Source of the DNA: Styela clava
Lineage: Eukaryota
Reading direction: 5' to 3'
Assembly: GCF_964204865.1 (NCBI RefSeq)
Contig: NC_135261.1
Coordinates: 18,724,001-18,788,000 of the forward strand
DNA: 64,000 bases
Below are positions 7,014-26,756 of the stretch, one piece after another; the first letter of the stretch is position 1; every line of letters starts with the position of its first letter. The translations under genes and the position numbers were made by a program. The notes beneath the pieces were generated by a model. That model did not search any database. It saw nothing but the letters and a program-made list of their open reading frames with translations, and was not told where the DNA came from.

Positions 7014-8158
7014 ATGACTGAATTAGTTCCAACTTTTTGCAGTCGGTATACGCGCTCGTCTGTCAACACTAGTAAAGGGAAAGTTCAGGCTCGAAGTTCT
7101 TCCCCTTTACAACATGATGTCAGATGTTGCAAAGAGCTTGCATTGTTTATTGGAAACCACATCCCTGAAAAACTGTCTAGTCGAGAATTAGAGTGGTATT
7201 GGAAAGATGAAGAGAAAATGCTGCACTCGCAACTGCAGGATAACATAAACTTCAGATATCAGTCCTCGGATCAGTCGGGTGCCGTTCGCGGTTTGCCGCA
7301 AGATAATTTTAAAAATTTGCGGCAAACGTTATCAACCACAAATCAACTATGGTGCGTTAGATGCGGTGGAATGATACCAATGCACTCATCAACCACCACG
7401 ATTCGGAAACCTTGTCCGGTTTCCGAATCCAAATTTAACCGTGACAAACGCACATCCATCAAGTTCATAAAACAAAGTACGGAAAATGAGAAATCTTCAA
7501 GAACGAACTGTCGTTTGCAGAAAAATTTCACTTCAAATTTGGCAGACAAAAGCTTGTCATTCCAAAATCAATGCGAGAGCATATCAGAAGAAATTTTTTT
7601 AAGTCGAGGGACAAAAGACTCTAAAAAGTTTGTTGAAAATAAATGGCACAATTGCAGCAATATGTGTAAAAGAGAAAGCGAAAATTTTCAATGCCAAAAA
7701 CACGGATATAAAAATATTTATCAAAGGGAGTTTATGAAAATAAACAAATTAGCGAATGAATTTATCAGTTCAGAATCATCTGGAAGGTCTACAACTTCTG
7801 GCAAAAAGGCTAAGCTCAACAAAAGTTTAGTATCGTCTACAAATATTAAAGGTTCTCAAACTTTACCAACAACGACGTCCAAAAGCCTTCTTAAAAACAG
7901 GCAAAATTTAAGAACAAAATCCCTTTTTAAATCGGATTTACAAAATCGTAATAAAAAAGAAAATTTGAAAACTATTCAATTATTCAATCTATCACGTCTA
8001 CTTATGACTTGGATTATTGCATTACTTGTCGGTTTTTTGAACGCTGGACGAATTCTAACCGGAACTATCATATCTCATAAAAATTCGAAGGGATTAGTAT
8101 CGAGGCGTGCTGTATTTGTGTTGTGGACATTGATCGTTTTACCTGGAGATTCAAAACG
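7014..8158 (+). CDS. Wnt6: Wnt6 exon 1: long N-terminal extension plus two hydrophobic segments
   Basis: A 404-codon stop-free frame (6948-8162) in very AT-rich DNA, with the first in-frame ATG at 7014. It ends at a consensus donor CG|GTGAGT (8159) in phase 2, matching the acceptor at 17550. The end of the exon encodes LLMTWIIALLVGFLNAG and AVFVLWTLIVLPG. Confidence 0.7.
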
Positions 8159-17100: not shown

Positions 17101-20100
17101 TAATTTTTTTTTATTTGTGTATTGAAATATTGTTCAAAAAGCCGATAAGGATATAGACGATGATCTGTCTGTCTGTCGGTCAATGATATATACATGTCGG
17201 GTATGCAAATTGTTTAGACTTTAAAAATAAATTAATATTAAATAAAAAACTAAACAAACTTCAAGGGTCAGATCGAATTCGTAACCGTATAACATCAGTT
17301 GTCATGTGTATCATGTATCATCAAGGCGGTATCCAGACTCTGCCAAAATTAAATTCATAGTTCTGAAATACTTCTTCACCAATAATCATTCATGCTCTTA
17401 AAATCCGACACAAAAATTAACAGTGAAGTTTTTGTGAGGGAGACTAGAAAAATCACTCAATTCCGTACAATTGTATTCCCTTTCGCAATAATTTGCATTA
17501 TTAGATTTTTTAATATCTCTTTGAATATATATATTTTCTTTATTTTTAGAGTCTTGGGAAATTCATTACTCGTAACGCCAAGTCAATTTTGCACAAGAAC
17601 AAGGTTTTTAAATGCAAGACAACAAGAAATTTGTAGGAATCATTCCCATATTTTAAAATACGTAAGTAGAAATTATAAGAATAATAGAATTTTCACACAA
17701 AGAAAATTTAAGTTTTAGATTCATAAAGTCAAGAAATCTGCTTGCTATTTAATTAATTTCTTTGTTTGTTATTTTTTACACGCTCCCATGTTTAGTATAG
17801 AAATTAAAAATAAATTGTAAAATTTGGGAGACTCTTTTATGTACAACATTGTACACACAATATTACATTAAATCAACTCTCTAACCACCAAACTAATCTG
17901 AAATGCTCTAATTTCAAAAGAATTGAAAGATTTAAAGTTCTGTGAAGAACGATATTCGTCGTATTTAAATATTGATTTCGGATTTCTCGTTTCATGGGCC
18001 ATGACAGTCTATAAAGATCATTATAAAAGTGTGTTGAAATTGTGCATGTTATGATTTTCATTTTCTTACTCGGCCATTCATTAATTTTGCATACCAATTT
18101 TATTGGGTCGAGGGCCATTTGGAATAAAATGAAATACTACAGATCTAAGGCAAAAATGCAATTACTTCTAAACTTCCGATAGACTTGAGTGATATATTGT
18201 TACGTGTTCTATCTAATCAAGGAAAATATTGCAGGTTGAAGAAGGAATAATTCAAGGTTCACATCGTTGTCAAAGAGAGTTCCAGTATAATAAATGGAAC
18301 TGTTCGAGATCTCCTAAAACATATTATAGTCGCTTGTTGAATCAAGGTTAGTCAGATATTTTTACCTGTAGTTACCGGCTTTTAGTAATTTGCTATCTAA
18401 ATGTACTTCGCAAAAGCCACACTCATACGAAATTTCAAGCAGATGTGCCTGGCCAAAAGGTCATGCGTTTCCATCTGTGTAATTTTATCTTCATTTTACA
18501 TCGTATGATGTTTTGATTGATAAACATTGAATTGATTTTTGTTTAAATTTGTATAGTACAAAACACACAGTGTTGTTGAGCACATTTCACTTGTTTCGTG
18601 CCTTCAAACTAGCTATAATTTCAACTACAATATATTCGATGTTTTTTATTTCTCCTATTTAGGCAGATGAAAGTTGTCTTGTAAAAATATGCGTGTGGAA
18701 TTTAGTTGTTTATTTGTCTTACTGAGATTAAGAGCTACCAATGTGTTAATCCGCCAAGTCGTTTGTTTTCTATGGCTGGATAAATGTGGGCCTTGATTAA
18801 AACAGTTTTCAAATAGGCGTAAACACTTTTAAAACACGATATTATCTATGGGTGTCTCCGGGAATAAGATTTAATAAACTAAATTCATAATATAAAAAAT
18901 TAATTTGTTTTCCTAATCGTCACGATTTGACTAAAAATATGTGTCGTCGATTTTTACTTTTAAAAATAAATTCCCCACGAAATTATTATCATTTAGAATC
19001 GATGTCTTGAGCCACCTGCTTAAATTTGATCAAATCATTTTGACATGACCTACGACCCAAATGGATAATAGATTGTCCATTTGTTGCAGATTTATAAAAA
19101 AAAATCTTAGAAGATATAATTTGAAAAATTGTTTATAATTGGACTAACTAAACTAAAATATCATTTTAGATAGTTTTTATTTTCGTTGTGAATACATTAC
19201 ATCGCGCAATTAAAAAACAATTTTATCTCAAATCTTGGAATTTACTATATAGGTATAAGTGTATGGAAACCTAATTAAGTTTATTATGTGTATTTGATGT
19301 AAAAAGTGAAAAACAACAAAATTTTGAGCATTGTTCACATTGTACATTCTATAAACATAAATAAAACCCATTAAAAGATTTCTAACAGAAATTGTGGTTA
19401 GTTATATGTCAAGTTGTTTAATGTATCGTCTCCCAGAACAAGATATTTCATATTTTTAAGACCACCTATAATGTTTGGAGTGAGATCCAATTTCGATAAA
19501 TATTTCTCAAATATAATACCATCGCAAATAAAAATATTTCTAAATACTTATCATTTTGTTGTTCCGCAGAATCGTTTATGCTATATCTTGTTTTTAGAAA
19601 CACGAGTGCAAAAAGCGAGATAAAAATATTTTTTTAAAGAAATGAAAAGCACGTAATCGTGAATTCCCTTATATAGAACATATTTTATTATTATTTTTTG
19701 TGGATTTTACCTTTTTATGTGATAGAATGTCTTTAGTTTTTTGATTCAATCGCATCTGAAATTGATGTTTATCAATTATGTAAATTTATTTTTATGGGAT
19801 TTTGGTCAGCTGGCAATAGAACCTGACCGCATCATTGTTGATGCATCATTCAAAAAGGTACAGTATAGGACACTTCTAGTTGAAGCTAACAAAATAACTA
19901 AATATTATTATGCGATTGAAATACGTTCAATTGCAGACCCACTTTATACCTGTATATTACTGAGCCAAGACCAAACTACTTAATCACAAAGTTAAGCTAG
20001 ATCACTTTTAGGTCGAACCTAAAACTTATAAAGTTGATTTATATTTCATGGAGTTTTTATTCAATGAAATGACTATCAATATTCCCAACTAATAAGATTT

Positions 20101-23100: not shown

Positions 23101-26100
23101 TTTCCTCATAAAATATAAAAAAAATTTTGATCATTTCCGAATAAATGAATAAAAATTTGAAAAGCAGCTTTTTATTTTCTTCAGTCGTGTTTGAGTTCAT
23201 CCAAAGGTTTTATTAAGACATTTCTGCTGGCAAAAGAAAAAATATTATGTTATAAATATTAATATTAACCAATATCAATTAATAATAATTTCAGTATAAA
23301 TAATTTTGAAGGAATAATATAAATTCGAAAGTTTGCAAATATTTGAAACATGTTTTTAACGTATCTTTGTAACTCAGACGTGTTTTGTATAAGCATATAT
23401 ATTTGATACGACTTATTTATCTTAAAACATTAATAGACGACAATATATGTGGTGTAAAACATTTTTTATAGTATATCGGTATCAATTTACGTAAAGATGT
23501 ATATAATTCCATAAAAGTTTGTTAGCGTTTAGGCAAGTTCGTTTCACATTTGTCATTCATGGGTTATTGAATAGTCGATTTTGATAAAAGACAAATCATC
23601 CACCATTATACGAGGAAAAAATAAATCGACCAACTCTTAAGAGATTCATACAGAATGATAGCATCGCAGTCATATAATTTTCTACCACGCTGCTCTTCAT
23701 TTTTACCGATACTGCGATTGATTATCGCATGCAACTTCAAACAGAGTTGGGTCTTCCTCACTGAGTGCTCGTGACCTGAATTTTAAATTATTGTTATTAT
23801 ACATATATTGAAAGGCTGTAAACTTGCTTCTATACTCGCTCATCCCTGATTCTTATTGGTTCAATTTTGTTTAGATATTCGAGAAACTGCATACGTTAAT
23901 GCAATGATGTCAGCGGCAGTAACTTACGCTGTGACGTACGCGTGTTCGAAGGGCGAAATTCCAGATTGCGGATGTGAAGAGAATTCGATCACAAGTTACG
24001 AATTACTCAAACAAGTAAGTTAGAATATACATCTGCTAAATTAAGGTCAAAGGCCGAACGTTTTGTTTTTCACCTGTCATGGTGGCACCCAAAATCATTC
24101 GATTGAGTATTATTTTAAAGTATACAAAATTATATCCATGTTTATAGGAAGCTATAAAGCGCAATTACAAAACTACTGAGGAAAATCTTCGAAAAGTTGC
24201 AGCAGAATTTGAATGGGGAGGTTGCGGAGATCAAATTGAATATGGAGACAGAATTTCCAGACTTTTCACAGAAAATTTTGGCAGAAAATTCCAAAGTAGT
24301 GACCTCAAAGCTAAAATTGAAATACACAATATGGAAGCTGGAAGGCTGGTACGTAGAATTATACTTTTCATTCAAACATATTGTCATAGTATACAATCGT
24401 GAATTATAATTAAGGAGCATACAATATTATTTCAATTGAAAATTGAAGTTTCAAACATTACCCTCTTTGGATGAAGTGTTTAAAGTAGAGGTTCCCAGTC
24501 TTTTATGGCCCTTATCCGACTTTCATCACTCATGCCGCCCCTGTTTAAAATTTTAATGGTATTTATAGTGTTGTTTTTATTGGTAGATTCCAAATCCCAT
24601 AACGTTCAAAATATTCATACTCAACAAAGTAAAAACACTCGGTGAAATAACCTCATCAAGCAACAAAACTAAAAAAAACGAGCAGTTTTCTTGGTAAAGG
24701 TAAACCGCGCCCAGCATTGTGACCCCCCTTAAACTGCTTTGTGTCCCTCTTGGAGGCCACGGGCCTCCGGTTGGGAACACTGATTTAAAGCATAAAATTT
24801 GATGCTATCGTATGGCATTTTTATGAACGCGAAAGATTTCGAAATACTGCATCTAAATAGGCTTTCAAATTGATAATTTCCGTTTTATTTTGACGGTTTG
24901 AAATCTATTAACACGTTCACAAAATAATATTCTGTACTTGGAATTATGATACTTGATACTCAGTTAGGTATGACAGGATCGAAACGTGATATAAATCATG
25001 GAGACCGAATAGTAATAATAATTTTATCAGACCAAAGCAATGATTATGATTAAAAATTTGGGCTCAATTACAAATTTTATATATATGTTTGTACTGGTAC
25101 GTTTTGTTGCATCTTCTATGTTTAGTAAACGTGCTACGCCAGTGAAAAAAAAGATAAAAATAGTCGGGGTATGCGAAAAATGTTACTGATCACAAGTTTA
25201 TTCATATTTTACAAATATTCAGTATCACAACAAATACTTTTTAGTGTGTATTATCAGATATATAGTAGAGATAATTTCCGTAATTTTCAAAAAAAGAGAA
25301 TTAGGAAAGAGAGTGAACATTGCAAAAAAAAATTTACGCCGATAATTAGGAGAAAAAAATGCTTCGTGTACGAGCCAAATTTGATGTCGGATCTGATGTT
25401 TGAATGGAGCAAATTCATTTTATGAATGAAAGAACATTCATTCTAGTGGTGTGGCATTGTGTAATAGATTGACCAGTTTTGAAAATAAAATGATAAAAGC
25501 CAGTCAATTTCGGGCTCAAATTCGCCTTACCATATAATAAAAGATAGCCTAGAACGCCAACATGAATATTTTTTTTTAATTTTTGCATTTCATTTCAGGC
25601 AATAACAAATCACATGAGAAGAGATTGTAGATGCCACGGAATCACAGGTACTTGTGCATTGCAAACTTGTTGGGATAGAATGCCGAAGTGGCAGGATGTT
25701 GGTAACCGATTACGAAACCATTTCGATGGTGCGGTTCGGGTACAACTGGCAAACGACGGCCGTTCTCTGCTACCAAAACGGAAACAACGAATTGCACTAA
25801 AACAGTATCCATATCCGAGAAGGCCTTATCCAGATGCGACATTGAACCGGTATAAGCGCAATTCTCCAGAAATTTATACCACTCGAACCAGCACCGGTGC
25901 AGCAAACATAGAAAGACGTGAAACAGAGAGACGAAGACGACGAAGAAAATTTAAGACTAAGGGTCTGAGACGTCGAAGAGGCGGAGATCGTGGGAGCGCA
26001 CTTGAGGATGAAAACCTAGTGTACTCTCAAGAATCGCCAGATTTTTGTAAGAGAAATCGGAAAAATGGAAGTTTGGGTACCATAGGTCGAAGATGTATAC

Positions 26101-26264
26101 CGAATTCTACAGGAGCTGGGAGTTGCGAATATTTGTGTTGCGGCAGAACTTATCAAGAACACGTTATCACAGTAACGAAGGACTGCAATTGCAGATTTGA
26201 ATATTGTTGTAAACTAGTTTGCGATAAGTGCACGTCGCAAGAAACTGTTCATACTTGTGACTGA
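7014..26264 (+). CDS. Wnt6: Wnt6-like secreted signalling protein, 6 coding exons: 7014-8158, 17550-17661, 18235-18346, 23875-24014, 24148-24348, 25599-26264 (791 aa from ATG 7014; 461 aa from the alternative ATG 8004)
   Basis: The exons join in frame through GT-AG introns (phases 2,0,1,0,0). The translation has 24 Wnt-pattern cysteines and the motifs CQREFQYNKWNCS, DIRETAYVNA, FEWGGCGD, HNMEAGRL, CRCHGITGTCALQTCW, NDGRSLLP, LVYSQESPDFC and CEYLCCGR. DIRETA, GGCGD, SRLF and NDGxxLLP match recalled vertebrate WNT6. The start codon is uncertain. Confidence 0.9.
13274..13908. mobile_element. Non-autonomous hAT (Charlie-like) element
   Basis: 15-bp TIRs CAGGGTCGTCCAACC / GGTTGGACTACCCTG and 8-bp TSD TCCTAGAT/TTCTAGAT (NTCTAGAN-type target). 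Confidence 0.85.
17550..17661 (+). CDS. Wnt6: Wnt6 exon 2 (VLGNSLLVTPSQFCTRTRFLNARQQEICRNHSHILKY)
   Basis: TTTTTAG acceptor and GTAAGT donor. Encodes the first two Wnt cysteines, similar to WNT6 AVGSPLVMDP..IC...QAELC. Confidence 0.9.
18235..18346 (+). CDS. Wnt6: Wnt6 exon 3 (VEEGIIQGSHRCQREFQYNKWNCSRSPKTYYSRLLNQ)
   Basis: TTGCAG acceptor and GTTAGT donor. Contains the Wnt CQxxF..WNCS motif. Confidence 0.92.
21063..21274. mobile_element. MITE family A, subfamily B
   Basis: Same termini and GAACTAAAATAAGGAAA..TTATGGCCTAACCCTAAC core as family A. Reverse complement of the copies at 33654 and 63567. Confidence 0.82.
23875..24014 (+). CDS. Wnt6: Wnt6 exon 4 (DIRETAYVNAMMSAAVTYAVTYACSKGEIPDCGC...)
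   Basis: TTTAG acceptor and GTAAGT donor. Contains the RETA..A...A...AVT.ACS.G...CGC Wnt motif. Confidence 0.95.
24148..24348 (+). CDS. Wnt6: Wnt6 exon 5 (...FEWGGCGDQIEYGDRISRLF...IHNMEAGRL)
   Basis: TATAG acceptor and GTACGT donor. Contains the WGGC and HNxxAGR motifs. The reading frame differs from the listed ORF 24197-24409. Confidence 0.95.
24486..24782. mobile_element. hAT (Charlie-like) MITE in Wnt6 intron 5
   Basis: TAGAGGTTCCCA / TGGGAACACTG termini and TSD GTTTAAAG/ATTTAAAG. Confidence 0.72.
25599..26264 (+). CDS. Wnt6: Wnt6 terminal exon 6 (thumb hairpin, expanded linker, cysteine-rich C-terminal domain, stop)
   Basis: TTTCAG acceptor. Matches ORF 25614-26264 and ends at TGA 26262-26264. 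Confidence 0.97.
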   Translation, partial: AITNHMRRDCRCHGITGTCALQTCWDRMPKWQDVGNRLRNHFDGAVRVQLANDGRSLLPKRKQRIALKQYPYPRRPYPDATLNRYKRNSPEIYTTRTSTGAANIERRETERRRRRRKFKTKGLRRRRGGDRGSALEDENLVYSQESPDFCKRNRKNGSLGTIGRRCIPNSTGAGSCEYLCCGRTYQEHVITVTKDCNCRFEYCCKLVCDKCTSQETVHTCD

Positions 26265-26756
26265 TATGGCACTGGTTAGCAAAAAGGACAAGAACAGAAC
26301 GAGAAAATGCGTGCATCGCATTAAACGGAACGAAGCGTCAAGCCTTTCGATAATGAAGGAAGCAGTTATCGTCTCTCTTGTAAACAAGTTGAAAGTGGAC
26401 ATCTCATCGAGTGACGATTTGGATGCGGCAAGATGGCCATTGTCTGGTTTAAGCAAACGCGGTTGAAGGATTTTATCCCTTTGACTGTTCCTTCGTGATG
26501 GAAATATGTTCTAAAGGCCTGGACGCCGTGGTAGTTTGTCAGAATCATAGAAAACTAAAATAATAGCATTGAAATTACTAATTCAAACGGTATTCAAATA
26601 TTTGGATCAATGCAATTATCAGATGGTAGTCGAATAGCTAGCTAGGTGCTGCTGCACTCCAACAATACATTTTTTTGACGACTTATAAACTTAAAGTAAA
26701 TTATTTAACATCAGCATTCGGAGAAATCTTATCTGTATCGGTGATCGACACATAAG

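Follow-up and report, generated by a model that had tools for sequence, protein, structure and literature searches.

An arginine-rich linker of conserved charge in Wnt6 of Styela clava and other ascidians

The Wnt6 protein of the ascidian Styela clava carries between its N-terminal and C-terminal domains an arginine-rich linker (NC-linker) of 79 codons, located at positions 25776-26012 of the window and flanked by the NDGRSLLP strand and NLVYSQESPDFC. The window is the whole stretch of DNA that was analyzed, 64,000 nucleotides of contig NC_135261.1 (positions 18,724,001 to 18,788,000, forward strand). The basic linker of ascidian Wnt6 is real and lineage-wide, and it is apparently undescribed. 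With a probability of about one half we regard it as an ascidian-wide, Arg-rich segment conserved in charge, which likely acts as a retention loop for heparan sulfate or other sulfated polyanions and whose distal Arg cluster may be clipped by a convertase.

The host gene is Wnt6 (LOC120329347), in which six exons with GT..AG ends join into a frame of 791 residues. The last exon matches Pfam wnt (PF00110) with an E-value of 1e-49 and shows a full-length match to a RefSeq/UniRef protein of S. clava. The features of the gene are as follows.

7014..8158, + strand: coding exon 1 of Wnt6, a hydrophilic extension of ~330 aa followed by two hydrophobic segments; start codon tentative
17550..17661, + strand: exon 2, matching P0002
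18235..18346, + strand: exon 3, matching P0002
23875..24014, + strand: exon 4, splice joint in contigs
24148..24348, + strand: exon 5, both junctions in contigs
25599..26264, + strand: last coding exon, with the end of the N-terminal domain, thumb, linker, cysteine-rich C-terminal domain and stop
25644..25646, + strand: Thr codon (ACA) where the lipid-attachment Ser of Wnts is located
25776..26012, + strand: arginine-rich NC-linker of Wnt6, 79 aa (+68 aa relative to the standard) by residue counts; kept in spliced contigs
25848..25859, + strand: proximal furin-type motif RYKR↓NS, present otherwise only in the closest relative P0118, as RYKR↓AA
25929..25949, + strand: RRRRRRK run within a predicted charged helix; sequence not conserved
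25968..25979, + strand: distal Arg cluster RRRR↓GG, a position-conserved candidate convertase site 11 residues ahead of the C-terminal domain

The 791-residue frame differs from P0002 (S. clava LOC120329347) at ten positions, eight of them in the N-terminal extension and none in the insert. Exon 1 comprises 380 codons, with the hydrophobic segments at residues 329-343 and 362-376; from its sequence, Met 331 could be the start of a short form. A long extension before a hydrophobic segment occurs in all five full-length orthologues (Styela, Clavelina, both Ciona species and Phallusia), and no homology was detectable between the extension of Styela and those of the other four. In Clavelina, Ciona and Phallusia the WW of the mature Wnt is immediately preceded by a small-x-small site at the end of the hydrophobic segment, an arrangement that reads as a cleavable signal.

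Three further segments of the window were noted. Positions 23978-24215 include a second ascidian-specific segment, which follows CGC, measures about 30 residues, is conserved in sequence (E-A-x-K-R/H-N) and is predicted to form two helices. The intronic repeat at 24540-24680, to which many divergent high-depth contigs match, is a dispersed element and probably transcribed. A single contig of one run indicates a possible GT..AG intron of 118 bases (26527-26646) within the 3' untranslated region.

The insert belongs to the transcribed coding sequence. Each of three studies has one contig that spans it completely with 0 gaps and no joint inside. In runs X1 and X5 the same contig also joins 24014 to 24148 and 24348 to 25599 at GT..AG, and in X6 both joints are found on a second contig, separate from the one spanning the insert. 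That the runs are RNA is a guess; splicing is shown by the joints themselves, and contigs can drop rare isoforms. Run X14, from another organism of study P3, did not cover the Wnt6 region. Allele differences among contigs within the insert comprise a synonymous change at 26012 and, in a single run, a replacement of Phe by Leu at a non-basic residue (position 25950). The concern, raised together with the sequence-only reading, that the insert might be an unrecognized intron is rejected for the major transcript on the basis of these ungapped contigs.

The linker contains 27 K/R (20 R, 7 K) and 9 D/E, giving a net charge of +18, and no Cys, with 12 Cys before and 12 Cys after it. Its Arg residues are specified by all six different Arg codons within a region of 33% GC. 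Between the Trp of the TCW motif and the Leu before Y-x-x-x-SPDFC there are 114 residues in Styela versus 46 in 108 of a further 111 hits, most of which carry the name Wnt6 (47 in two and 40 in one); the Styela linker is therefore exactly 68 residues above the standard Wnt6, and the short NC-linker of ~11 residues expected of a Wnt6 is absent. The figures of 79 residues, 27 K/R and an insertion of about 68 aa that had been read from the sequence are borne out by codon count and landmark spacing, and RYKR, RRRRRRK and RRRR are located where that reading had placed them.

An AlphaFold2 model based on 85 sequences has a confident Wnt core (mean pLDDT 84.5, pTM 0.79), with the linker in blocks at pLDDT 54-60 and one charged helix at 81-82. 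All ten significant Foldseek matches are Wnt structures. The linker is predicted to be a surface loop on an intact Wnt fold; model and fold matches agree with the earlier placement of the insert in the linker between the two domains, outside the folded core. The model puts the distal site in a low-confidence surface loop, where a predicted helix of mixed confidence ends.

First homologue searches delivered no ascidian orthologue beyond Styela itself. A profile search and an HMMER search of 1.84 billion representatives gave seven relatives whose matches extend across the linker: the Clavelina lepadiformis Wnt-6-like protein, the proteins of Ciona intestinalis and Ciona savignyi, 'Orphan Wnt e' of Phallusia mammillata, and P0118, P0147 and P0224. 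Together with Styela they make up the eight orthologues of the ascidian clade. P0118, P0147 and P0224 are single-exon fragments, and the eight rows are related by descent. Tests on these rows excluded the model P0113, which has no insert, as well as the redundant isoforms P0002 and P0255-P0259, and the linker table leaves out 22 of 375 proteins without regex landmarks. In a tree built without the linker (45 rows, 138 columns) the eight ascidian rows form one clade (100/97), which falls inside the Wnt6 group with modest support (92/71). The profile hits are overwhelmingly named Wnt6. 'Orphan wnt e' of Ciona has been equated with wnt11-1, which is expressed in tail-tip muscle (PMC3458022); as the Phallusia protein of that name is a Wnt6 in the tree, this expression pattern was not transferred.

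All eight orthologues possess a long basic linker of 56-92 residues with 28-50% K/R and a net charge of +11 to +29, and all 111 further hits have a short one. Judged from these sequences, the long basic linker is common to ascidian Wnt6 as a whole and no peculiarity of Styela, a point that the sequence-only reading had missed. Such a linker was found in none of 11 other Styela Wnt loci with the linker in one exon (44-53 residues). The exception among the Styela Wnts is a Wnt9-like gene 87 kb downstream, which also has a long linker.

This Wnt9-like gene (L010:2285-2761, G000:C16) is located on the same strand as Wnt6, and its own long linker is partly basic. The segment LIRLRRS (RLRR↓S, a furin-type site) is common to the Styela gene and the Clavelina protein P0161. 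A Wnt9-Wnt6 linkage is reported for Ciona in the available text of PMC6060547, and the Styela neighbor fits it. At 8.81-8.99 Mb of G000:C10 (L001-L003, L005, L007, L014-L016, L018) Wnt last exons are repeated in tandem, with at least 11 copies, some of which have diverged (lost Cys; two with stops); the array is consistent with the Wnt5 expansion in stolidobranchs given in the same part of PMC6060547.

The charge of the linker persists while its sequence turns over, as indicated by linkers that cannot be aligned across orders and yet keep 28-50% K/R. Compared with shuffles, the Styela linker aligns with z-scores of 7.4 to P0118, 4.5 to P0147 and 2.4 to P0224, and against Clavelina, the two Ciona species and Phallusia z is between -0.1 and 1.2, i.e. 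without sequence homology. High Arg content is maintained across three ascidian orders. Identity between the Ciona species is 21 of 28 at basic and 12 of 34 at other residues, and between two Ciona entries 29/29 and 31/35, respectively, values to be read with the preference of aligners for abundant residues. Arg:Lys is 149:51 in the linkers versus 107:60 in the flanks (P=0.04). Clustering of basic residues in 8-residue windows did not exceed that in shuffles.

Polybasic segments bind heparan sulfate. A heparan-sulfate segment is expected to have exposed Arg/Lys clusters with a high net charge that is conserved; the high net charge is found in all eight orthologues, the basic residues are preferentially kept, and strong polyanion binding by the Styela linker is plausible from its sequence. 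Secreted Wnt6 would bind heparan sulfate or other sulfated glycans through the polyarginine loop, to judge from its charge, and the bound loop would hold the protein near its source and shorten its range. The expanded linker may also alter the contact with LRP5/6, the linker being the LRP6 site in other Wnts. Convertase P-domains are encoded at several loci of the Styela genome, and RYKR↓NS and RRRR↓GG, in a loop predicted to be exposed, may well be cut in part by a convertase; such partial cleavage would give a non-covalent two-chain Wnt with a C-terminal domain uncoupled from the basic tether.

A loop serving retention is favored by the presence of the basic linker in all eight members of a clade recovered on a linker-free tree, by an insert unchanged against P0002 next to an extension with eight changes, and by the recurrence of long basic linkers in 19 other retrieved Wnt rows, seven of them without a furin motif. 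Against it stand the descent relationship of the eight orthologues and the fragment status of three, and the hint from the distal motif, discussed below, that selection acts on the cleavage; were the majority of molecules cut at both ends in the Golgi, there would be no retention by the loop. Basic motifs in the linker of Wnt7a are moreover described, in the accessible part of PMC11633749, in a different role, that of coatomer binding and vesicle loading.

The principal alternative is that the linker was selected as a convertase substrate. A distal cut would then produce a two-chain Wnt6 that is switched on, switched off, or converted from short to long range, with an additional cut at RYKR in styelid-like forms. 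We consider this possible and clearly less probable than retention. Furin sites of the type R-X-[KR]-R favor a non-basic, non-aliphatic P1' residue. Under this rule the pattern occurs twice in Styela (RYKR↓NS and RRRR↓GG). Chance alone would produce such motifs in a linker of this basicity: 82% of shuffled Styela linkers contain at least one, and three clusters were observed versus 1.29 expected (P=0.08). Over all eight linkers there was no enrichment (13 clusters versus 11.6 in shuffles, P=0.36), and this total at chance level counts against a selected substrate.

The position of the motif speaks in its favor. R-X-[KR]-R is located within the last 20 linker residues in all eight orthologues versus 3.5 expected (P=0.0005-0.0007), in a window picked after inspection and among related rows, with 6-8 of 8 at windows of 12-30 residues and only 4 of 8 (P=0.13) at 10, which weakens the case. 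Without C. savignyi the count is 7/7 (P=0.002), and with a local shuffle P=0.005. The same test at the proximal end gave two of eight. A distal site with favorable P1' occurs in six of eight versus 1.65 expected (P about 0.001) and in one of eight in a mirror-image control; it is lacking in both Ciona species, and the favorable P1' may reflect a neutral spacer that closes every linker. Seven decoy motifs of equal basic content reached 5-8 of 8 (seven for the reverse motif, eight for [KR]-X-R-R), so the distal signal may be nothing beyond an Arg cluster. The motif is also present in the linker of 45 of 338 other Wnt rows.

Further support for cleavage comes from P0118, which has both RYKR and RR-GG in common with Styela but only 16 of 52 non-basic residues, from the predicted exposure of a Cys-free loop between two sets of 12 Cys, and from the RLRR↓S kept by the neighboring Wnt9-like gene in Styela and Clavelina. 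Of the conservation that the sequence-only reading had looked for at its basic sites, RYKR falls short, with two of eight orthologues (Styela and P0118), and the distal R-X-[KR]-R holds in place in all eight. What the linkers show at their distal end is a position-conserved Arg cluster fitting the furin consensus; selection for cleavage there is suggested. No disulfide is known to connect the two domains of Wnts, and the halves of a cut protein would accordingly stay held non-covalently.

Proteolytic processing of the ascidian linker is plausible from sequence. A tentative and slightly less probable extension of this reading is that the distal cut, in Styela together with a second cut dropping a basic peptide of 40 residues, turns a precursor of ascidian Wnt6 that is bound to the matrix into a ligand that is split or has two chains, and that its range is set by proteolysis and charge instead of by lipid, in a lineage with a relaxed lipid Ser. 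The palmitoleoylation Ser of CxCHGxSG is replaced by Thr in Styela, P0147 and P0224 and by Cys in Clavelina; the other four orthologues have Ser, as do 346 of 364 rows. Thr at the acylation position also occurs in two other Styela Wnts (L004, L017).

It is improbable that the linker, as a tolerant loop of a gene that evolves fast, merely expanded neutrally. Between Wnts few stretches are conserved less than the linker, according to the part of bioRxiv 2022.10.21.513178 that was available, and that of ascidians is unalignable across orders. High Arg content in three orders, the preferential retention of basic residues and the use of six Arg codons at 33% GC, unlike a simple slippage tract, argue against neutrality.

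Equally improbable is a cleavage that releases the 94-residue Cys-rich C-terminal domain to diffuse without lipid and bind Frizzled, the N-terminal half being tethered. The piece after RRRR↓GG would have 10.4 kDa and 12 Cys, the acylation Ser is replaced in half of the orthologues, and unlipidated mini-Wnts bind Frizzled weakly via the index finger, as stated in the accessible part of PMC5458758, citing Janda 2012. Such release requires dissociation of the domain interface in addition to cleavage, and the model keeps this interface intact. The N-terminal domain is conserved as in other Wnts, and the tethered N-terminal half that had been proposed finds no support in Clavelina, Ciona and Phallusia, where a signal-peptidase-like site precedes the mature N-terminus.

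Marginally less probable again is an expanded trafficking signal for coatomer binding and extracellular-vesicle loading, as reported for the Wnt7a linker. In the available portion of PMC11633749, K/R motifs of the linker send Wnt7a and Wnt3a to vesicles, and a comparable disordered loop of Wingless carries KR and KK motifs; the motif reported there is di-lysine, whereas ascidian linkers are dominated by Arg, and they are far longer than an 18-residue signal requires.

An unrecognized intron, or a nuclear localization signal of a non-secreted form, is hardly credible: the C. savignyi UniRef model P0113 lacks the insert, but it also lacks the second ascidian-specific loop while its sister model P0264 has both, which points to an artefact of homology-guided modeling; in-frame GT..AG pairs exist in the insert, but in poor splice contexts and against the ungapped contigs; and the long extension ahead of the hydrophobic segment may recall a non-secreted form, but all 24 Cys of the mature domain are kept as in a secreted, disulfide-bonded protein, making the earlier idea of a nuclear signal unlikely.

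The range of Wnts and the means of their retention have long been in question, and the choice of co-receptor depends on the NC-linker. The ascidian lineage is the sister group of the vertebrates. Its Wnt6 represents a natural experiment that combines a polycation linker, an N-terminal extension and the loss of the acylation Ser in half of the orthologues, and that lends itself to direct tests in cell lines and in embryos of Ciona or Phallusia. Should the distal site be cut, a proprotein convertase would mature this Wnt within its core, a case for which literature titles and abstracts yielded no example. If it is uncut, the linker would be a lineage-wide retention module, like the basic linkers that arose separately in other Wnts. 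No description of the ascidian Wnt6 linker was found in literature listings outside the subscription journals, and the word 'insertion' is absent from the main text, as distinct from the alignment files, of the chordate Wnt survey PMC6060547.

With the Wnt6 subfamily the Styela protein shares the fold, 24 Cys, the exon-encoded motifs, the best-hit names, the place in the tree (92/71) and a Wnt9-like neighbor. Ascidian Wnt6 differs in a linker of 56-92 aa versus ~11, and the Styela protein additionally in its long N-terminal extension, the extra helical loop after CGC and Thr at the acylation site. The NC-linker is the LRP6 contact in other Wnts (Tsutsumi et al., bioRxiv 2022.10.21.513178, text available in part), and the ascidian segment resembles the linker module for LRP6, Reck and coatomer in its position, flexibility and subfamily specificity (Tsutsumi et al.; Gurriaran-Rodriguez et al., PMC11633749, as far as their text was available). 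As described in the same parts of these sources, the known linkers are short and sequence-conserved within a subfamily, whereas the ascidian one is about 5-8 times longer and conserved only in charge.

The large insert of Drosophila Wingless and the long linkers of arthropod Wnt1 and Wnt10 are comparable as independent expansions at the same site, often with basic runs; they belong to another subfamily and origin, and the retrieved insect Wnt1 inserts are mostly rich in Asn, Gly and Ser and lower in charge. Linkers of at least 25 residues with at least 28% K/R occur in the 19 other retrieved Wnt rows mentioned above, e.g. decapod Wnt1, beetle Wnt10 and a flatworm Wnt. In SOD3, VEGF-A189 and PDGF-A/B a basic matrix-binding cluster doubles as a convertase or protease site and controls spread. 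In its presumed action the ascidian Wnt6 linker would come closest to these proteins, as a basic cluster that is a candidate matrix binder and protease site. The segments of SOD3, VEGF-A189 and PDGF are tails, either terminal or encoded by an exon, and the core stays whole once they are removed, whereas that of Wnt6 is internal and a cut would give two chains.
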